Origin: an uncultured Bacilli bacterium | GTDB taxonomy: Bacteria > Bacillota_I > Bacilli_A > RF39 > UBA660 | DNA: 64,000 nucleotides | NCBI GenBank assembly: GCA_944363595.1 | Contig: CALVUN010000010.1 | Span: 6,852-70,851, forward strand | Reading direction: 5' to 3' | Position numbers and translations under genes: made by a program | Shown here: positions 2,601 to 57,722 of the stretch, one piece after another | Layout: each line of letters opens with the position of its first letter | Numbering within the stretch: the stretch's first letter is position 1 | Notes under the pieces: model-generated | Databases searched by the model: none | Told to the model about the DNA's origin: nothing | Seen by the model: the letters and a program-made list of their open reading frames with translations, nothing else

Positions 2601-5283
2601 TGAACAAATAATAAGAACATATCTTGATTTTTTTAAAGAAAGAGGTCACTTAGAGATACCAAGTAGTTCTCTAATACCCAAAGACGATCCAACTATACTT
2701 TGGATAAATGCCGGAGTAACACCCCTAAAAAAATATTTCGATGGAAGTGTCATACCCACTAATCGTCGCTTAACAAGTTGCCAAAAATGCATTAGAACAG
2801 GTGATATCGAAAGTGTCGGTAAAACTGCCCGTCATCACACCTTTTTTCAAATGCTAGGTAACTTTTCAGTAGGAGATTACTTCAAAAAAGAAGCTTTAAC
2901 ATGGGCTTACGAATTATTAACAAGTGAAAAATACTTTGGTTTAGATAAAAACAAATTATATATAACTGTCTATCCCGCTGATGAAGAAGCCTACAATTTG
3001 TGGGTAAGCTTAGGTATTGATCCATCACATATTATCAAATTAGAAAATAACTTTTGGGAAATAGGACCAGGACCAAGTGGCCCTGATAGCGAAATATTCT
3101 ATGACCGTGGTGAAAAATACGATCCGCAAAAACAGGGAATCAAACTATTAGAACAAGAAATAGAAAACGATCGCTATATCGAAATTTGGAATAACGTCTT
3201 TAGCCAATACAATGCCAAAGAAGGTGTACCAAGAAGTGCCTATGAAGAATTACCAAGTAAAAATATCGATACTGGTATGGGAGTCGAAAGAATGGCCTGC
3301 ATTATGCAAGAAACCGAAACCAATTACGAAACTGACCTCTTCATGCCAATTATGGATGCCATTTCCCAAATAGCCAAAATAGAATACTTAGGTCAAATGG
3401 AATTCAAAGTAATCGCCGATCACATAAGAAGTTTAACTTTTGCCCTATCCGATGGAGCAACTTTTAGTAACTATGGTCGTGGTTATGTTCTAAGAAGACT
3501 ATTAAGAAGAGCTGTACGTATGAGTCGCAAATTAAACATCAACCATAGCTTTATGGCCGAATTAGTCGATGTCGTTGTAGATAAATACAATAGCATTTAT
3601 CCCGAATTAAACCAAACCAAAGGACTTGTCAAAGAACTAATTACCAAAGAAGAAGAATTATTCCATCGTACCTTACTATCAGGTGAGAAAAAACTAGAAG
3701 AAATATTCACCACAAGTCCCGTTAAACAAATAAATGGCAGTGATGCTTTCAAACTATACGATACCTATGGTTTTCCTATCGAATTAACAGTCGAATACGC
3801 AAATGAACAAGGCTTTACTGTCGATACCGATGGCTTTCAAAAATACATGAATGCCCAAAAAGAACTAGCCAGAAGTAGCCGTAAAGTAGAAGCAAGTATG
3901 AATCTACAAAACGAAGCATTAATGAACTTTACAGAAGAAAGTACATTTATCGGTTACGATACCCTAGGCTCTGAGACAACTGTTATAGCCATTATGAAAG
4001 ACAATAATTTTGTCGATAGCTTAAATGATGAAGGATATCTAATATTAAAAGAAAATCCCTTCTATGCCGAATCAGGTGGTCAAATTGATGATACAGGTTA
4101 TCTAAAAAATGACCATTTCAAAGCAGAAGTCATGGAAGTAGTCAAAGCTCCTAATAAACAACACTTATTATATGTCAAAGTACTAGAGGGCCAAGTCAAC
4201 AAAAATGATACCGTCTTAACTCACGTATCTCAAGAAAAAAGAGAAAGCATTACCAGAAATCACAGTGCTACCCACTTACTTCAAAAAACATTACAAGAAT
4301 TTTTAGGCACTAACGTCCATCAAGCAGGTTCCAAAGTCGAAGAAGAAACCTTCCGTTTCGATTTCACTTATCCAGGTCGTTTAAGTGATGAAATAATCGT
4401 TAAAATAGAAAATAGTATCAACGATAAAGTCAATGCTGCTTATGAAACAAAAATTGAATATATGAAGAAAGAAGAAGCAATTGCCAAAGGAGCTATGGCC
4501 TTATTTGATAACAAATATACAGATAATGTAAGAGTTGTTACCATGGGACCATCAATTGAACTATGCGGTGGAACCCACGTCAAAAATACCAAAGATATAG
4601 GTCATGTTGCTATCATTTCCGTTGAAAACAAAGGAGCAGATACTTTCCGTATCGTGGGTGCCACAGATAACAACATCGCCAAAGCCTTATATGAAGCAAT
4701 AAAACCATATAACGACGAAATGAAAAAGCTCCTATCCAAAGCCAAAAAAATAATCGAAGAAGCCCATACTCTAGGTATCGATCTAACTTTAGATTTTAAC
4801 ATCAATAATGATTTACCAACCGGATATAAAGATATAATCTATAATAAACAAGAACTAGCTACATTAAAAGAAAGTATCAAAGAACTAGAAAAAACATATC
4901 TATCACAAAAGACAGCCAAGTCCATTAGTGATTTATCCGCTTTCATCGATAGTAAAGAAGAAATAAATAACATAAATGTAATTATAGCTATCACTAAAGA
5001 TTACGAAATATCTGTCTTAAAACAAGTTGTCGATGCCTTATCAAACCAAGTACCAAATAGTTTTATTCTCTTAGCTAACCTAAAAGAAAATAATGCCAAT
5101 TTCATTGCCAAAAGCAATACATCAAATGAAAAACTTAACTGTGGTAGCATTATCAAAGACTTGTCTATCAAATGTGGTGGCAATGGGGGAGGTAATCAAC
5201 ACTTTGCCCAAGGCGGTGGAACAAATGCTAGTGAATTAGGAACCCTTTTAGGTGAAGTAAAAGAAACAATCAAGAACCTTTAA
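2584..5283 (+). CDS. alaS: alanyl-tRNA synthetase
   Basis: 899 aa with full-length AlaS hallmarks: catalytic core, the editing-domain motifs HSATHLL and CGGTHV, and the C-terminal DHHA1-like GGGNGGG motif. Confidence 0.95.
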   Translation: MKKMTSEQIIRTYLDFFKERGHLEIPSSSLIPKDDPTILWINAGVTPLKKYFDGSVIPTNRRLTSCQKCIRTGDIESVGKTARHHTFFQMLGNFSVGDYFKKEALTWAYELLTSEKYFGLDKNKLYITVYPADEEAYNLWVSLGIDPSHIIKLENNFWEIGPGPSGPDSEIFYDRGEKYDPQKQGIKLLEQEIENDRYIEIWNNVFSQYNAKEGVPRSAYEELPSKNIDTGMGVERMACIMQETETNYETDLFMPIMDAISQIAKIEYLGQMEFKVIADHIRSLTFALSDGATFSNYGRGYVLRRLLRRAVRMSRKLNINHSFMAELVDVVVDKYNSIYPELNQTKGLVKELITKEEELFHRTLLSGEKKLEEIFTTSPVKQINGSDAFKLYDTYGFPIELTVEYANEQGFTVDTDGFQKYMNAQKELARSSRKVEASMNLQNEALMNFTEESTFIGYDTLGSETTVIAIMKDNNFVDSLNDEGYLILKENPFYAESGGQIDDTGYLKNDHFKAEVMEVVKAPNKQHLLYVKVLEGQVNKNDTVLTHVSQEKRESITRNHSATHLLQKTLQEFLGTNVHQAGSKVEEETFRFDFTYPGRLSDEIIVKIENSINDKVNAAYETKIEYMKKEEAIAKGAMALFDNKYTDNVRVVTMGPSIELCGGTHVKNTKDIGHVAIISVENKGADTFRIVGATDNNIAKALYEAIKPYNDEMKKLLSKAKKIIEEAHTLGIDLTLDFNINNDLPTGYKDIIYNKQELATLKESIKELEKTYLSQKTAKSISDLSAFIDSKEEINNINVIIAITKDYEISVLKQVVDALSNQVPNSFILLANLKENNANFIAKSNTSNEKLNCGSIIKDLSIKCGGNGGGNQHFAQGGGTNASELGTLLGEVKETIKNL

Positions 5284-5296: not shown

Positions 5297-5360
5297 TATT
5301 CCCTTGACAAATACAAAAACAATTGCTAAAATATATTTTCAAAAAAAGGGGGGGATAAAA

Positions 5361-25408: not shown

Positions 25409-25485
25409 TGGCGTCCCAGACAGGATTCGAACCTGTGACCGCACGCTTAGAAGGCGTGTGCTCTATCCAGCTGAGCTACTAGAAC
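25409..25485 (-). tRNA. tRNA-Arg (anticodon UCU), with CCA encoded
   Basis: Clean cloverleaf on the minus strand: GTTCTAG acceptor stem, D-arm GCTC/GAGC, anticodon stem CACGC/GCGTG around loop CTTCTAA, T-arm ACAGG-TTCGAAT-CCTGT, then discriminator G and CCA. A TTGACA-18-TGcTATACT promoter lies at 25507-25536 on the minus strand. Confidence 0.85.
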
Positions 25486-31098: not shown

Positions 31099-31119
31099 AT
31101 ACTTACCAAGGTGACCAAA

Positions 31120-31899
31120 ATGAAAGTATATATTGACCTAGTATTATTTCTAAATCTCATTATTGATCTTTTCCTCCTCATAGCGGTAACAATCATCCTA
31201 AAAAGAAAAACAAATATTAAACGCCTAATAATATCAGCCCTAATAGGAAGTCTAACCACTTTAACTCTTCTCATAAAACTAACTAATACATCTCTTTTCA
31301 TCATAAAGATAATCATATCTATTATTATGGTTATAACCGCTTTTCATTATCAAAACATTCGTTATACCATAAAAAATATAACCTATTTATATATAGTAAG
31401 CATAATTCTAGGAGGAGCCCTCTATCTATTAAATGTCCAATTTTTCTATCACCAAGAAGGACTAACTTTCTATCATGACGGTTTAGGATTAAATATTTTT
31501 GTAATTATCATTTTAAGTCCCATCATTATCTATTTATATTTAAAAAATATCAAAGAATTAAAAAACAACTATTCTAATTACTACTATCTAGACATATACT
31601 TAAAAGACCAATCAAAAATATCCCTAATAGGATTTGTTGATACGGGCAACAATTTAAAAGATCCTTATACCAAAAGTCCCATCATCATTGTAAGCAAAAA
31701 CAAAATCCCCCCCCAAGAAAATTACCTTTTAGTGCCTTTCCAAGTAATCAATCATCATGAATTATTAAAATGTATAAAGCCCCAAAAAATAATTATTGAT
31801 AACCAAATAATCACTACTAAAGCATTAATAGGTATTTCTGATAATAATATCAACATCGATGGTGTTGACTGTATCATTCATCCCGAATTAATAAAATAA
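31120..31899 (+). CDS. spoIIGA: sigma-E processing peptidase SpoIIGA
   Basis: N-terminal transmembrane helices (YIDLVLFLNLIIDLFLL) and the aspartic protease motif FVDTGNNLKDP. It lies directly upstream of sigE. It contains a C8 tract at 31697-31704. Confidence 0.85.
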   Translation: MKVYIDLVLFLNLIIDLFLLIAVTIILKRKTNIKRLIISALIGSLTTLTLLIKLTNTSLFIIKIIISIIMVITAFHYQNIRYTIKNITYLYIVSIILGGALYLLNVQFFYHQEGLTFYHDGLGLNIFVIIILSPIIIYLYLKNIKELKNNYSNYYYLDIYLKDQSKISLIGFVDTGNNLKDPYTKSPIIIVSKNKIPPQENYLLVPFQVINHHELLKCIKPQKIIIDNQIITTKALIGISDNNINIDGVDCIIHPELIK

Positions 31900-36015: not shown

Positions 36016-36327
36016 TTACCTTTTTTTAACCTTAGGTAATTCTTTTTTCTCTTTAGTTAAGTCTAATTTTTGAATAAAAACATCTAAGTCATAATTAATA
36101 ACTAAATAATCAGCAATAATCTGTAATACCTTTCTATTATCAGAAATATTAATCAAATCACACACACCACTATCTTTATCATTAATAGTAATAATTTTAA
36201 ACTCTTGCCCTGTAATAATTTCTTTAGCCATATTATTATTAATAGTTACAATAACTTTAGAAACAATATCACCCATTAAAAAACTATAATAATCCTTAAC
36301 TAATAGTCCACCAAACAATTCTTTCAT
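36016..36327 (-). CDS. hypothetical protein
   Basis: 103-aa ORF, divergent from repeat element A. Confidence 0.4.
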   Translation of the reverse strand: MKELFGGLLVKDYYSFLMGDIVSKVIVTINNNMAKEIITGQEFKIITINDKDSGVCDLINISDNRKVLQIIADYLVINYDLDVFIQKLDLTKEKKELPKVKKR

Positions 36328-36370
36328 ACTATTAATATATGAAAAATTAAGTAAAAAGTCCCCAAAAAGC

Positions 36371-36591
36371 TTGTCAAATAATTAACAATATGGTAATATT
36401 AATATGTAAGATATAGAAAGGTAGGTGTCTCCCTCATGGATAAAGTAAATTATAATAAGTTAACTACAATGATACTAGGGGGGGGGGTATAAATTACCTA
36501 CTTTAAGGATAATTGATAATATAAACAGAAAAAAAACTACAAAGATTAAAGTTTAGCATATAACTAAGCTTATTTCTTTGTAGTTTTTTTC
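36371..36591 (+). repeat. copy A of a repeated roughly 170-nt micro-gene element (promoter, leader, 18-codon ORF, conserved terminator hairpin)
   Basis: TTGTCA-17-TGgTAATAT promoter at 36371-36399. Ribosome-binding site AGGTAGGTG. ORF at 36436-36492. Conserved hairpin AGTTTAG-N7-CTAAGCT at 36550-36570 inside terminator 36533-36591. Homologous to 47668-47868 and, decayed, to 53799-53888. Confidence 0.6.
36436..36492 (+). CDS. micro-ORF A: MDKVNYNKLTTMILGGGV (contains a G10 homopolymer)
   Basis: In frame with a homologous ORF in copy B. The G10 run at 36478-36487 encodes GGG. Confidence 0.4.
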   Translation: MDKVNYNKLTTMILGGGV

Positions 36592-36609
36592 TATAGGAGG
36601 AAGTAAAAG

Positions 36610-38325
36610 ATGAAAAAAATTACAATTATTTTAGGTATCATATTAGTTATTGCCTTAGTAATAAGTTCTTCATATGCCTTATTTTATCAAGAAAATACTT
36701 TAGATAATCAAGAAAGATATGCAACAGGAATATTAGATATTCAATTAGTTGAAGAAGAAGGCTACAATACAAGTATTCAATTAAATAATACTTTACCAAT
36801 GAGTGATGAAGAAGGAAAAAATACTACACCATTTAAGTTAAAATTAAAGAATGTAGGTAATTTATCATATACATTTGATTTAAAATTAATAAATACTGAA
36901 AATGAAAATAGTATAAATCCAGATTATATAAAAATAATGGTTGATAGTGATGAACCAACTACATATAGTAATTTAAATAATAATACTATTAAAACTAATA
37001 TAACTTTAGATCCAAATAAAGAAATAGTAATTGAAATAAGAGTATGGCTGAATAATAATATTTTGAATAGTGAAATTGGTAAAAAATTTAGTGGTAAACT
37101 TGTTGTAGATGGTGTAGGTAGTGAGTATGTTACTGAAAGTACAAAAACATTAGAAAAATTAAATTTAGTATCTAATATAGGAAATCCCGATTTTACTAAA
37201 ATAGCAAATACGGACGAAGGAATATATGCAGCAGAAGATGATTATGGCACAAGCTATTACTTTAGAGGAGCAGTAGAAAATAATTATGTTAAATTTGGTG
37301 AATATGCTAATGATATTTACTATGGATATAATACAGATAAAGTTAGTGCGACATCAGATTATTTACATAAAACATATAATTCTTTAGAAGAATGTCAAAA
37401 TGCAAGTGATTATAACAAATCATGTCAGCTTAGAATAAGCAAGGGAACTCCGATGTACTGGCGAATAATAAGAATAAATGGTGATGGAAGTATCAGAATG
37501 ATCTATGATGGAACAGAACCTCATGAAAATGGAGAGCAAACCTATGATAAAATTATTAATATGAGTGCTTATAATGAAATTGGAACTGATTTAAACTATG
37601 CAGGATATATGTATGGAAATAAATTCTTTGATTGGGATAGTAATTCTAGTTCTAGTGGACTTCTTGCGTATTACGATGAATTTACAGAAACAGGCTTATA
37701 TACATATCCAACTCCAATTGAAGGATCTTATTTTGAAAATATCAATGATAGTAAAGTAAAAAAAGAAATAGATAATTGGTATGCTTCTCATTTTACAAAT
37801 ACCCAATATGAAAAATATCTTGCTGATGTAATTTACTGTAATTATCGTAAGTCATATAAAAATTTTATTGATATAGCATACAAAGGAGGATTTGACTATT
37901 ATGACTTTAATTATAGTACTCCCTTTACAAGTTTAAAGTGTACAATTCAAAATGACCGTTTTACCGTAAATGATACTACTTTAGGTAACGGCGACTTAAC
38001 GTATCCAATAGGATTGATAACTATAGACGAAGTAAATATGGCAGGCGTTTTAGGTGTAGCTAATGGAAGAGCAGAAAAAAATTATTTAATGGGAACAGGT
38101 TTTTGGACAATGTCACCAAATGCTCAAATAATTTACATAGAATTATCAGACACAAACCATGAAGCAAATGTTGTTACATTACATATGGTTGACGTCAATG
38201 GTGCAACATCAAATGCTGTTTTCAATGATACTACCGGAGTGAGACCTGTAATTTCTATAAAAGGCGATACAAACTTAATAGGAACAGGTACTATCAATAA
38301 TCCATTCAGATTAGCAGAAGATTAA
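36610..38325 (+). CDS. large secreted protein with a SipW-cognate-type signal peptide and an N-terminal TasA/camelysin-like domain
   Basis: The N-terminus ...SSSYALFYQENTLDNQERYATGILDIQL fits the AxFxD...GTLDL pattern of SipW-dependent signal peptides. The following domain parallels TasA (NL.P..D....F.L.N.G.L). A roughly 350-aa C-terminal extension is unknown. Confidence 0.5.
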   Translation: MKKITIILGIILVIALVISSSYALFYQENTLDNQERYATGILDIQLVEEEGYNTSIQLNNTLPMSDEEGKNTTPFKLKLKNVGNLSYTFDLKLINTENENSINPDYIKIMVDSDEPTTYSNLNNNTIKTNITLDPNKEIVIEIRVWLNNNILNSEIGKKFSGKLVVDGVGSEYVTESTKTLEKLNLVSNIGNPDFTKIANTDEGIYAAEDDYGTSYYFRGAVENNYVKFGEYANDIYYGYNTDKVSATSDYLHKTYNSLEECQNASDYNKSCQLRISKGTPMYWRIIRINGDGSIRMIYDGTEPHENGEQTYDKIINMSAYNEIGTDLNYAGYMYGNKFFDWDSNSSSSGLLAYYDEFTETGLYTYPTPIEGSYFENINDSKVKKEIDNWYASHFTNTQYEKYLADVIYCNYRKSYKNFIDIAYKGGFDYYDFNYSTPFTSLKCTIQNDRFTVNDTTLGNGDLTYPIGLITIDEVNMAGVLGVANGRAEKNYLMGTGFWTMSPNAQIIYIELSDTNHEANVVTLHMVDVNGATSNAVFNDTTGVRPVISIKGDTNLIGTGTINNPFRLAED

Positions 38326-46900: not shown

Positions 46901-47665
46901 ATGGAAACATATTATTTAATCTTTTTCTTTATATTAGGATCTGCTATGGGATCCTTCTATCATGTAGTAGCGACACGTTTATCCAATAATGAGTCACTAG
47001 TAAAACCAGGATCCCATTGCCACTATTGCAATCATAAATTAAAATGGTACGAACTAATACCATTATTATCGTACATAATTCAAGGTGGAAAATGTCGTAA
47101 ATGCAAAAAACATATACCATTAAGTTACTTCATTATCGAATTAATAACGGGTATCATCTTTGCTGTATGTTATCATGTTTTTGATTTCAGTGGGGAATTA
47201 TTAATTGCCTTAATTTATACATCAAGTATGATAATAATTATAATAAGTGATATTGAATACATGATAATTTTAGACGAAGTATTAATCTTTGCTTCTGTTG
47301 CTATAACCATAATATATATTTTTTTCTTTGGTATAAATACAACTTTTTCTCATTTATTAAACGCCATCGCGGCCTTTGGATTAATGTATTTAATTAAAAT
47401 AATTGGTGATTTCATGTTTCAAAAAGAATCTCTTGGTGGTGGTGACATAAAATTAATGTTTTTATCAGGACTTGTCATAGGTTTACCACTAAGTGTTTGT
47501 ACAATTTTTTTAGCAACATTTATTGCCTTTCCTATTGCCATATATATATTATTAAGTAAAAAAGATAATCTAATCCCATTTGGGCCATTTTTAAGTATGG
47601 CATCAGTAATAATATTAATTTCTAAAATAAATATTCAAGATGTACTAGACTTTTTAATAAAATAA
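46901..47665 (+). CDS. prepilin peptidase (A24 family, ComC/PilD)
   Basis: N-terminal Zn-binding CxxC...CxxC (CHYCNHKL...CRKCKKHI), transmembrane helices, and the GGGD catalytic-aspartate motif. Confidence 0.85.
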   Translation: METYYLIFFFILGSAMGSFYHVVATRLSNNESLVKPGSHCHYCNHKLKWYELIPLLSYIIQGGKCRKCKKHIPLSYFIIELITGIIFAVCYHVFDFSGELLIALIYTSSMIIIIISDIEYMIILDEVLIFASVAITIIYIFFFGINTTFSHLLNAIAAFGLMYLIKIIGDFMFQKESLGGGDIKLMFLSGLVIGLPLSVCTIFLATFIAFPIAIYILLSKKDNLIPFGPFLSMASVIILISKINIQDVLDFLIK

Positions 47666-47667
47666 TC

Positions 47668-47868
47668 TTAATGTTAAATTAAAAATATGGTAATATATTA
47701 CGTCAGATCTTGAAAGTAGGGGCTCTTCCCATGCCGAAATTAAATTATAGTTTGTTAACTACAACAATACTAGGAATGGTATAAATTAACTACCTTTAAT
47801 ATAATTAATACAATAAAATTATAAAAATTAAAGTTTAGTATAAAGCTAAGCTTTTTTTTTAGCTTTAT
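47668..47868 (+). repeat. copy B of the repeated micro-gene element
   Basis: TTAATG-17-TGgTAATAT promoter at 47668-47696, ribosome-binding site AGTAGGGG, ORF 47731-47784, conserved hairpin AGTTTAGtataaagCTAAGCT followed by T9 at 47832-47860. Aligns with copy A along most of its length. Confidence 0.6.
47731..47784 (+). CDS. micro-ORF B: MPKLNYSLLTTTILGMV
   Basis: Homologous to micro-ORF A, with the same ribosome-binding-site spacing and frame. Confidence 0.4.
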   Translation: MPKLNYSLLTTTILGMV

Positions 47869-47957
47869 TGTATTTATATAGATTTCCACATAATTATATG
47901 TATTATATAGTTGTATTTTTTATAAAACATAGTATAATGTTTATAGGAAGTGATATT

Positions 47958-53733: not shown

Positions 53734-53798
53734 TACAGTAAATATAAAAAAATGATAATTAAGATTAAAAGAAAATAAAAAAGAATTATAATTATCTA

Positions 53799-53888
53799 TG
53801 CCAAAATTAAATTATAATATGTTAACAATAATAATATTAAGTAATATAAAACTAAATAGTACCTTTAATATTTACCTTAGATTTTAAA
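53799..53888 (+). pseudogene. copy C (decayed) of the micro-gene element; ORF MPKLNYNMLTIIILSNIKLNSTFNIYLRF lacks a ribosome-binding site and terminator hairpin
   Basis: ATGCCAAAATTAAATTATAATATGTTAAC... is homologous to copy B (ATGCCGAAATTAAATTATAGTTTGTTAAC...). The downstream ...TACCTTTAATAT block is retained. No SD sequence and no conserved hairpin. Confidence 0.4.
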
Positions 53889-54029
53889 ATATTATAATTA
53901 TTTAACAATATATATTTTGTTATATTATAGTCTTTTTAACAAATATCATGTAAAGTACACAAAAATAATTGTAATTTATTTAAAACTATGGTAAAATGAT
54001 ATCAGAGTAAAAAGAATAGGAGAGATATT

Positions 54030-56429: not shown

Positions 56430-56648
56430 ACGTATTTTAAAGCAAATGAAAGAGACGATATAATAAGTTTTCTTAATAGAGAGTTCATGTATGGTGGAAA
56501 TGGACAAGAAAGTATTATATAGATCACTCTGGATGTTCTTATCTGATATTAGGATAAGACGGTAGTAATACCGTTATTAAATTAAGTAATAAGGTAGGAT
56601 GGTACCGCGTCAGAAACGCTCCTAAATAGGAGTGTTTTTTTTCATTTA
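56430..56648 (+). promoter_or_regulatory. T-box riboswitch leader (probable Ile specifier AUC) with intrinsic terminator
   Basis: Stem I elements (GA/K-turn region, AGAGAG box at about 56476). Candidate specifier AUC-A at about 56523. T-box sequence AAGGTAGGATGGTACCGCG at 56591-56609. Terminator ACGCTCCTaaatAGGAGTGT followed by T8 at 56614-56648. Confidence 0.6.
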
Positions 56649-56882: not shown

Positions 56883-57722
56883 ATGAATAAAAATATAATT
56901 TCACTTTTAAGTTTTATAGAATTAAATTATCAAAATGCAATAAATAATGTCATTGAACAAAAATTAAGACCTATTATTGAAAAAATAGATAAAGAGTTTT
57001 ATAAAGACAATGTAACTATCAGTAAAATAATTAATTATTATAGTAAAAAATCAATTACTATATGTGTTGTTTTACAAAAAAATGAAAAAAAATATCAAAA
57101 CTATAATTTACAATTAACCAGTAATGGCTTAGCATATCAAGACGATAATCATCGACGAAAAAATAATGACTTAAATAAAGAAAATTATTTTAATAATATA
57201 TATATAGAATTAATAAATAGTTCTAATATACATGTTTATATATCTGGTTATCAAGCAATTATCAATTTAGGTAAAATAAATATTACATATGATTTAATAA
57301 AACAAGAAATTATTCAAGTAAAGCCTAATATTATTTCCCATGATAGTGGTATTAAGCTTTTAAAAGATACCCTTATTATTGATGGTAAAGTAATATATGA
57401 AGAACATTACCAAGAACAAGTATTATCAAAAAAAATATATGAAGCAACTACATCAGATGAAAAAGTTAGGTACAAATTAAATTATAGACATCCTAATGTT
57501 CATCAAATAGAACCTGGTATAGCTAAAATAGAATTAGGAGAAGCTACAGTTATTTATGATAATATTAATAGAAGAATAAAACAAATTATTCCTAATATTG
57601 TTTCAGAAGAAAGTTGTTTTATTGAAATGATAAAAAAATCGATGATAAAAGTTCGTTATTATCATGAAGAAAATGAAGAAAAAATAAATTATCAAGAATA
57701 TAAAAGAAGGAGAGTTAGATAA
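56883..57722 (+). CDS. hypothetical protein, translationally coupled to ileS
   Basis: 279-aa ORF with a good ribosome-binding site. Its stop lies 1 nt before the ileS ATG. No family recognised. Confidence 0.5.
   Translation: MNKNIISLLSFIELNYQNAINNVIEQKLRPIIEKIDKEFYKDNVTISKIINYYSKKSITICVVLQKNEKKYQNYNLQLTSNGLAYQDDNHRRKNNDLNKENYFNNIYIELINSSNIHVYISGYQAIINLGKINITYDLIKQEIIQVKPNIISHDSGIKLLKDTLIIDGKVIYEEHYQEQVLSKKIYEATTSDEKVRYKLNYRHPNVHQIEPGIAKIELGEATVIYDNINRRIKQIIPNIVSEESCFIEMIKKSMIKVRYYHEENEEKINYQEYKRRRVR

Follow-up and report, generated by a model that had tools for sequence, protein, structure and literature searches.

The stretch of DNA analyzed here (the window) comprises 64,000 nucleotides (nt) of contig CALVUN010000010.1 (positions 6,852 to 70,851, forward strand) from an uncultured Bacilli bacterium. 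It has a GC content of 28%, and its genes include murG, sepF, divIVA, pilC/pilD and scpAB. Between pdp and queA, upstream of queA-dnaG-sigA-trmK, lies a gene for a protein of 571 amino acids (aa), here called the cargo gene. It is directly preceded by a short element, copy A, with a promoter, an upstream open reading frame (ORF) containing a run of ten G residues, and a terminator. Two further copies, B and C, are present, and the three copies lie within 17.5 kb. Loci outside the window carry L numbers and predicted proteins carry P numbers. The following parts were assigned in copy A, with Shine-Dalgarno abbreviated as SD and ribosome-binding site as RBS.

36371–36399, + strand: promoter, conserved in L004, L006, L009, L017, L041 and L058

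36371–36376, + strand: -35 box TTGTCA, followed by a 17-nt spacer, the TG of the extended -10 (36391–36392) and the -10 box TAATAT (36394–36399)

36417–36427, + strand: SD of the upstream ORF, AAAGGTAGGTG, 8 nt before the ATG at 36436; predicted pairing with the anti-SD at 36496–36504

36436–36492, + strand: upstream ORF of 18 codons plus TAA, MDKVNYNKLTTMILGGGV; short state

36478–36487, + strand: G10 homopolymer made of three GGG codons and the G of GTA; proposed slippage site

36488–36556, + strand: alternative long frame, which a tract of G9 or G12 would open; first codons TAT AAA, stop codon TAG (36554–36556) inside the terminator hairpin; predicted product of 39 aa

36496–36504, + strand: anti-SD ACCTACTTT, closing a hairpin around the upstream ORF

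36530–36590, + strand: two-tier intrinsic terminator; outer stem AAAAAAACTACAAAG / CTTTGTAGTTTTTTT, inner AGTTTAG-N7-CTAAGCT, T7 at 36584–36590

36610–38325, + strand: cargo gene, 571 aa, with the RBS AGGAGGAAG at 36595–36603; there is no space for a promoter of its own

The terminator arms of copy A (36530–36556 and 36564–36590) are 27 nt long each and 85% complementary, and the AGTTTAG hairpin forms their inner tier. The fold of the whole leader has a predicted energy of -46.6 to -48.5 kcal/mol (z = -4.6). The ATG of the cargo gene at 36610 follows the T-run after only 19 nt, so this gene can be transcribed only through the hairpin. Thus, the element is a 5' leader and not an autonomous gene. 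A candidate promoter inside the hairpin (TTGCAA-N16-TAGTAA) was rejected because of its poor -10 box, as judged by eye. The 3' arm of the terminator with its T-run (TTGTAGTTTTTTTC, 36578–36591) is 93% complementary to codons 2–5 of the cargo gene (GAAAAAAATTACAA, 36612–36625), which places the RBS in a loop; this complementarity may be a coincidence of lysine codons and the T-run.

The promoter of copy A, including its TG, is also selected by a scan with a consensus promoter. Promoter-like matches as such are not enriched in this AT-rich DNA according to the same scan, so the assignment rests on conservation across copies. The -35 box is TTGAAA, TTGTCA or TTGCCA, followed in each case by a 17-nt spacer and a TG-extended -10 box. 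The spacer and -10 stretch TTAACAATATGGTAATATTAATAT is almost invariant between the window and genomes with a cargo protein identity of only 59%. The -10 box is the centre of a palindrome, ACAATAT-N10-ATATTGT (36386–36408), which is highly conserved in the same relatives and may be an operator for a regulator common to all copies. Some copies contain an insertion of about 50 nt between the -10 box and the SD (GTACAAAATAATTCGCAATTATCGCGTAC...; L004:160-215, with equivalents in L006, L008, L015, L017, L041 and L058). This insertion in the 5' untranslated region (5' UTR) holds a small hairpin, AUAAUU/AAUUAU, and is absent from copies A and B.

Copies A (36366–36612) and B (47660–47880) are 72% identical over 221 nt (blastn and alignment, E = 6e-31). 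Copy C is related to B (63% identity over 209 nt, E = 5e-12) and to A (67% identity over 105 nt, E = 4e-5; both by blastn). The homology of A and B had been recognized in the initial annotation, which was made from the letters of the window. The extended -10, the RBS, the in-frame short ORF and the AGTTTAG-N7-CTAAGCT hairpin that it described can all be read in both copies. A decayed third copy was also noted there, at 53799–53888, a narrower span than the alignment shows. The family had not been recognized at that stage, and Rfam likewise contains no matching family: covariance models run over the window gave nothing on the element at the gathering score, and no credible family was obtained for 36300–36650 even at E <= 10.

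Relatives contain full copies of the entire unit (nhmmer E-values of 1e-57 to 1e-67). Orthologues of the 571-aa protein were found by a protein search and their contigs were then inspected. L004 contains a full copy of the element and L005 a diverged one, and L003 and L001 retain the terminator part. In all four, the leader stands before the orthologous gene as in copy A. A scan of species-representative genomes with a pattern derived from the end of the upstream ORF gave 16 loci. Seven of these belong to one metagenome-assembled genome (MAG), 'uncultured Bacilli bacterium BRZ_EL__bin60', and the remainder are chance matches. This MAG has at least seven copies, located on seven different contigs with unrelated neighbours. 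In all MAG copies for which downstream sequence is available (6/6), the RBS and ATG of a paralogous gene lie no more than about 20 nt past the T-run. The proteins encoded by these cargo genes are paralogous to each other and to the 571-aa protein of the window, with 23–86% identity in a mosaic pattern. Every full copy outside the window that has downstream sequence shows the same junction, in which the terminator abuts the RBS of the cargo gene and no promoter lies between them; nine full copies from related uncultured Bacilli have this spacing of about 20 nt or less.

A profile search of 575 kb of retrieved DNA gave no copies beyond those already found. The terminator pattern matched 19 loci in the Joint Genome Institute (JGI) metagenomes, all of which are chance matches according to nhmmer. 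The element is absent from gut Bacilli with a 66% identical PilD (L042–L051), and a 37%-identical cargo homologue (L052–L057) is preceded by a plain promoter only. The absence from these more distant relatives confines the element to a narrow lineage, and judged by this distribution the cassette is a recent invention of that lineage. In the gut relatives, the place between pdp and queA is occupied by two small unrelated ORFs of 176 and 154 aa (L042–L051:1-1110); cassette and cargo gene therefore behave as a unit of insertion or replacement.

L001 differs in its organization. Three tandem genes for tyrosine recombinases, resembling a 'recombinase in trio' arrangement, are located at L001:675-3968 between the arms of a 162-nt inverted repeat (728–889 and 3751–3912, 92% complementary). 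Each arm leads outward into the 3' part of a leader, beginning at the box GGTATAAATTAAC, and then into a terminator and a different paralogous cargo gene. The promoter, the upstream ORF and the G tract are replaced by sequence of the inserted element with GCGTATAA repeats. The recombinase trio could represent a targeted insertion or an invertible or otherwise recombining expression site.

A miniature mobile or repeated element, comparable to miniature inverted-repeat transposable elements (MITEs), BOX elements or repetitive extragenic palindromic (REP) sequences, could spread between genes and resemble a promoter and a terminator by chance. The density of copies in the window and their dispersal in the MAG agree with this, as do the hairpin insertion in the 5' UTR of some copies and the position of the recombinase trio of L001, precisely at the GGTATAAATTAAC box and between two inverted leader remnants. 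However, the ends of copy A have no terminal inverted repeats, and in copy B the sole match between the ends is weak and AT-rich. Orientation and distance relative to a paralogous gene are constant among the full copies, so it is the leader together with its gene, and not the leader alone, that duplicates. Furthermore, a scan of viral contigs found no copies. An origin as a mere mobile repeat is thus extremely unlikely, and the element is treated as a leader in the following.

Homologous upstream ORFs of 17–20 codons are present in ten copies (A and nine more), all with an SD 7–8 nt before the ATG. The predicted leader peptide is MQKLNFKSLTYCILGGGV in most MAG copies and MKKLNFKSLTYCILGGV in L004. 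Insertions and deletions within the ORF are multiples of three (G10, G7 or GGAATGG at the tract and a one-codon gap in L005), whereas length differences follow no such rule in the 5' UTR, the spacer behind the stop codon and the hairpin loop. The same TAA terminates the ORF in 9/10 copies. What is conserved is the reading frame, the stop codon and the RNA. The ORF resembles a double-glycine bacteriocin leader (M.K.N[YF]...ILGG). This candidate was rejected, as no core peptide follows in a fixed frame and the nearby 580-aa ATP-binding cassette (ABC) transporter has no peptidase domain in Pfam.

The predicted RNA fold consists of two domains. In domain 1 the SD (GGUGGU; GGUAGGU in copy A) pairs with an anti-SD behind the stop codon (AYCACY; ACCUACU in copy A) and the spacer CCUCCCU pairs with the G tract; this domain also encloses the start codon. 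The terminator forms domain 2. Over ten copies, 93.7% of the cells are paired, compared with 46–59% when the partners are slid. Compensatory changes occur in 8 pairs compared with 1.6 in shuffled alignments, and none of 500 shuffles reached the observed value, with the reservation that the structure was derived from the very sequences tested. Both the SD:anti-SD helix and the terminator maintain pairing through changes on both sides. No conserved antiterminator was found, as minimum free energy folds of full and truncated leaders contain the two domains only. A segment of the upstream ORF, AACTACAATGA (36462–36472), is a repeat of the 5' terminator arm, with 91% complementarity to the 3' arm (36575–36585). 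It is present in window-type copies (A, B and L005) and not in the MAG copies, and for this reason was not used in the model developed below.

The upstream ORF of copy A ends with CTA GGG GGG GGG GTA TAA. GGG is the rarest glycine codon (3.5% of glycine codons), and pairs of consecutive GGG codons are absent from 15,382 codons of long ORFs. The G10 tract of copy A is the sole run of nine or more G or C residues in the 64-kb window. Six MAG copies also have G10, and L004 has G7. The tract is followed by a conserved box, GTATAAATTAA, which provides TAA in two frames, immediately in one and 6 nt further on in the other. The third frame (TAT AAA TTA ...) is free of stops for 60–81 nt in 9/9 tract-bearing copies, in which the other two frames contain 19 and 27 stops. 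In these nine copies the short frame stops 28–34 nt upstream of the terminator stem and the long frame 21–47 nt into the stem. A change from G10 to G9 would therefore convert the ORF of 18 codons into one of 37–44 codons that reaches into the terminator. The decisive combination of a G10 tract with a stop-free frame had been missed in the initial annotation, the parts and homologies of which are otherwise retained.

Other runs of G or C in the window are unrelated to the element. A G7 run at 5348 is a ribosome-binding site, and a C8 run (31707–31714) is located inside a gene (ORF 31111–31899, + strand). The latter is unusual at a GC content of 28% and could be a conventional in-gene contingency tract.

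Tract length varies in nature. L017 has G10 and L058 has G9, and from the promoter to the start of the cargo gene, about 310 nt, the two loci are otherwise identical. L059 also has G9 and shows two further substitutions in the flanks relative to L017. A second comparison confirmed these tract lengths. L058 and L059 derive from two samples of one other study and encode P0241. At the level of sequence, the single-G difference between L017 and L058 is the signature of a slippage-prone contingency tract. Products of the long frame were sought by running a profile of hypothetical G9 products against a collection of 5.8 billion proteins, whose gene callers never report ORFs of 18 aa and can report ORFs of 40 aa. 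This search gave 16 predicted proteins of 36–67 aa. The exact product predicted for a G9 variant of L017 is P0241. Two proteins from NCBI assemblies, P0255 and P0256, are long-frame products of the window type (MDKVYYNKLTTMILGGGYKLTTFNIIN...), and P0245 has an interrupted tract (…LGGEYKL…) that fixes it in the long frame.

The conservation of structure raises the alternative that the element is a structured cis-regulatory leader RNA, riboswitch-like or protein-binding, in front of a terminator. The likeness to an ORF and the G run would then serve folding only, and the variation of the tract would be incidental or due to assembly errors. This agrees with the two-domain fold and its compensatory pairs, including the CCUCCC/GGGGGG and SD/anti-SD pairings, with conserved codons that are invariant at all three positions (among them the non-preferred CTA and GGG) in a block-like pattern of nucleotide conservation, and with the near-identical promoter core and its possible operator palindrome. 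On the other hand, Rfam provides no match even at E <= 10, and no alternative antiterminator pairing is conserved. The confinement of 3n insertions and deletions to the ORF, the spacing of the SD, the stops in exactly two frames and the third frame that is open through the terminator are left unexplained by it. The apex of domain 1 is conserved in sequence and yet predicted to be unpaired, which fits coding better. A purely structural role is therefore unlikely.

Most likely, the element is a homopolymer-based, multi-copy, phase-variable leader-peptide attenuator before genes of secreted proteins; we consider this probable, though by no means certain. The proposal starts from what can be read directly, namely the anatomy of the element and its conservation, the position of the stop in each frame, the G9/G10 polymorphism and the long-frame ORFs in public assemblies. 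The cassette would have four parts: a sigma-A-type promoter with an extended -10, an upstream ORF of 17–18 codons with a strong SD, the G7–G10 tract, and a terminator less than 20 nt before the RBS of the cargo gene. In the finished RNA, the 3' end of the ORF together with the downstream anti-SD would fold back onto the SD and the start codon. Replication slippage would change the length of the tract. With G10, G7 or G11 the peptide would end at one of the two TAA codons of the box GTATAAATTAA, about 30 nt before the terminator; the terminator would form, and the cargo gene would be expressed by read-through only (low or OFF). With G9 or G12 the ribosome would enter the stop-free third frame and read into the terminator hairpin. 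A ribosome close behind the polymerase would block the hairpin, and the cargo gene would be transcribed (high or ON). The helix that sequesters the RBS may limit initiation to ribosomes that load during synthesis of the RNA, the only ones to reach the terminator in time. Copy A, with G10, is predicted to be a complete cassette in the low state. The assignment of the long frame to the ON state is by analogy with the pil1 and pil3 loci of Streptococcus gallolyticus, and the same mechanism was adopted because the measured distances fall in the same ranges.

Several points weigh against this switch. The start of transcription, termination, translation and the direction of ON and OFF are all inferred. 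The difference between G9 and G10 could be an assembly error in a homopolymer, and L058 and L059 come from one study. All nine copies found by the DNA pattern are in the short state, and the pattern would also match G9; the long state may thus be rare or artefactual. In any single copy, an open long frame departs only mildly from expectation (P of 0.10–0.32 in shuffles), and the copies are related to each other, so that taken alone it is weak evidence. L005 has only G5 and a different arrangement of frames, and hence the scheme is not uniform. Copy B has an intact ORF with neither tract nor cargo gene, which the model does not require. Furthermore, conserved codons of the upstream ORF are invariant at all three positions and variable codons change equally at positions 1, 2 and 3. 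Selection at the level of the peptide therefore cannot be claimed, and the conservation may reflect RNA structure or gene conversion.

A variant of the scheme would place the change of frame in translation. The GGG run of G10 would be a programmed +1 ribosomal frameshift site, at which the glycine peptidyl-tRNA re-pairs one base forward and enters the stop-free frame, at a rate set by the conserved peptide and the RBS-sequestering helix. We regard this as quite unlikely. If true, the rate could follow decoding capacity or growth state, and a physiological signal would be layered on the heritable G9/G10 switch at at least seven surface-protein loci together.

The remaining copies of the window have lost parts that the proposed attenuator would need. 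Their features are as follows.

47664–47880, + strand: copy B, an orphan leader directly after the stop codon of pilD

47691–47696, + strand: TG-extended -10 box TAATAT of copy B; SD at 47713–47722 and anti-SD at 47790–47797

47731–47784, + strand: upstream ORF of copy B, MPKLNYSLLTTTILGMV, in which GGAATGG replaces the G tract

47830–47860, + strand: terminator hairpin and T-run of copy B, within an outer stem at 47804–47877

53739–53938, + strand: copy C, a decayed copy of the B type, delimited by the alignment of B and C

In a strain with a 95% identical PilD, the start of an element is found at the same insertion point behind pilD. The long frame of copy B closes at the base of the hairpin, and no cargo gene follows; nfeD lies 70 nt further on and has its own -10 box (TAGTATAAT, 47925–47935). 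With the non-slippery GGAATGG, a closed long frame and no cargo gene, copy B is an orphan locked in the short state. Copy C is a relic. Its SD, G tract and intact hairpin are all missing, and its ORF, having lost the stop codon, continues to 29 aa. About 50–70 nt past it, sepF has its own -10 box (TATGGTAAAAT, 53985–53998). As each has its own -10 box, sepF and nfeD are independent of the leader promoters. Both copies look like orphaned or decaying leaders.

For copies B and C in their present state, the initial annotation of the elements as autonomous small genes is apt; for copy A it does not hold, given the 19 nt to the cargo ATG and the leader position in relatives. Applied to the whole family, this reading assumes a discrete transcript of about 150–190 nt encoding a peptide, similar to the short hydrophobic peptide (SHP) or XIP pheromones or to a type I toxin, that acts independently of the neighbouring gene. 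The separate promoter, RBS and terminator and the conserved ORF of 17–18 aa ending in ILGG(G)V are in line with it. Copy B would give a separate short RNA, since nfeD behind it has its own -10 box, and in the short state most transcripts would end at the terminator. Outside B and C, however, the terminator abuts the RBS of a paralogous cargo gene with no promoter between them, C and partly B are decaying, and the rare-codon G tract and the stop-free alternative frame are given no role. As to the suggested functions, a pheromone of the SHP or ComS type finds no support. The neighbours of copy A are a divergent 103-aa ORF without a family match in Pfam or NCBIfam and otherwise housekeeping genes. 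Those of the seven MAG copies, as seen in ORF lists without a Pfam scan, differ from copy to copy and look mostly like housekeeping genes. No obvious Rgg- or ComR-like partner was noticed among them in these lists, and the sole candidate resembling a helix-turn-helix protein (117 aa) is 1.6 kb away. A type I toxin is not supported either, as the hydrophobic stretch of about 10 residues is too short for a membrane-spanning helix, and nothing points to a dual-function small RNA. Autonomous small genes are thus a very unlikely explanation of the family.

At the N-terminus, the cargo proteins carry a membrane anchor or signal, and motifs such as SSYALF, GTYAMFTS and SSLAWWTW come after it. Pfam and NCBIfam assign no family, except for a weak match to DUF6273. 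An AlphaFold model of the cargo protein (pLDDT 79.5) has no significant match in the PDB according to Foldseek, and its N-terminal domain is modeled as a generic immunoglobulin (Ig)/PapD-like sandwich only. The earlier description of the downstream protein as TasA-like is supported by neither family database nor by the fold search, and the accurate label is an uncharacterised family of secreted or membrane-anchored proteins.

Two other RNA features were detected in the window with Rfam, both away from the element. A T-box leader (RF00230; 99.1 bits, E = 1.3e-20) is located at 56437–56626 on the + strand, upstream of an ORF starting at 56883. A tRNA gene (RF00005, 65.2 bits) is located at 25412–25485 on the - strand.

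Small peptide genes of two known kinds share single traits with the element. Similar to SHP/Rgg and ComS/ComR, there is an ORF of 17–18 aa with its own RBS and a hydrophobic C-terminal part containing GG. Here, in contrast, the terminator abuts a cargo gene and rare codons in a slippery tract specify the glycines. Type I toxin-antitoxin mRNAs also contain a small ORF with an SD sequestered by long-range pairing. The present peptide, however, has neither the length nor the hydrophobicity needed to cross a membrane, and the position of the cargo gene is fixed. No antisense RNA was seen, although only the general promoter scan, which says little in AT-rich DNA, bears on this.

In the pyrBI, trp and his operons of Escherichia coli, a ribosome that translates the leader close behind RNA polymerase decides whether a terminator hairpin forms. 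The proposed switch would likewise put an intrinsic terminator under the control of a ribosome on a leader ORF. The classical systems respond to UTP-dependent pausing or charged tRNA and use antiterminators or the coupling distance, whereas a heritable change of frame is proposed here. An amino-acid attenuator of the trp/his type was considered in view of the run of GGG codons and rejected, as no alternative terminator pairing is conserved and the cargo is an uncharacterised secreted protein.

Contingency loci with poly-G or poly-C tracts occur in Campylobacter, Neisseria and Helicobacter, and poly-G tracts in 5' leaders are represented by uspA1 of Moraxella and tlpB/RepG of Helicobacter pylori. 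Common traits are a G9–G10 tract in an AT-rich genome, genes of surface proteins and a length polymorphism of a single base. Classical tracts are located in the structural gene, with truncation of the protein as the effect, or in the promoter spacer; in contrast, the present tract lies in an unannotated upstream ORF and is proposed to act via a terminator. This points to a blind spot of annotation, because scans for contingency loci target annotated genes and promoter spacers and an upstream ORF of 18 codons is never annotated. The combination of an SD, a short ORF with a homopolymer, a stop box in two frames, an open third frame and a terminator is a signature that can be searched for.

The closest analogues are the pil1 and pil3 loci of S. 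gallolyticus, in which the ORF of a leader peptide contains GCAGA repeats (Danne et al. 2014, PLoS Pathog, PMC3894217). In the low state, the distance from the end of the peptide to a stem-loop terminator is 39 bp in pil1 and 33 bp in pil3, and out-of-frame changes of the repeat lead to longer peptides that end within or beyond the hairpin (PMC3894217). Mutants of the ATG, added stop codons and deletion of the terminator showed that translation of the long peptide blocks the terminator and raises transcription, and isolates with a peptide stop at least 28 nt upstream are low (PMC3894217). The order of parts is the same in both systems: a promoter, a small ORF with its RBS and a hypermutable repeat within it, a stem-loop terminator and a promoterless gene of a surface structure. 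The short frame stops 28–34 nt before the terminator here and 39 or 33 bp before it there, and the other state ends in or beyond the hairpin. There is no sequence homology and no copy contains GCAGA repeats; a G homopolymer stands in place of 13–22 GCAGA units. As the likeness is one of architecture only, pil1 and pil3 are analogues and not homologues. Three further differences concern the frames, the RNA and the setting. Just one of the two out-of-frame states gives a long peptide here, because the conserved box provides TAA in two frames. A conserved helix, of which the tract is part, sequesters the RBS and the start codon. At least seven dispersed loci per genome carry the cassette, before members of a paralogous family that is not a set of sortase pili, in uncultured AT-rich Bacilli in which its function is putative.

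As far as we know from the literature, a mechanism in which the repeat length within a leader peptide determines whether a ribosome overruns a terminator has experimental proof only at two pilus loci in a single species of Streptococcus. If the proposed switch operates, the cell surface would vary in a combinatorial and stochastic manner. Compared with the pilus loci, the same logic appears to have arisen independently in uncultured host-associated Bacilli, with a homopolymer as the variable repeat and as a portable cassette before at least seven paralogous genes of secreted proteins per genome.

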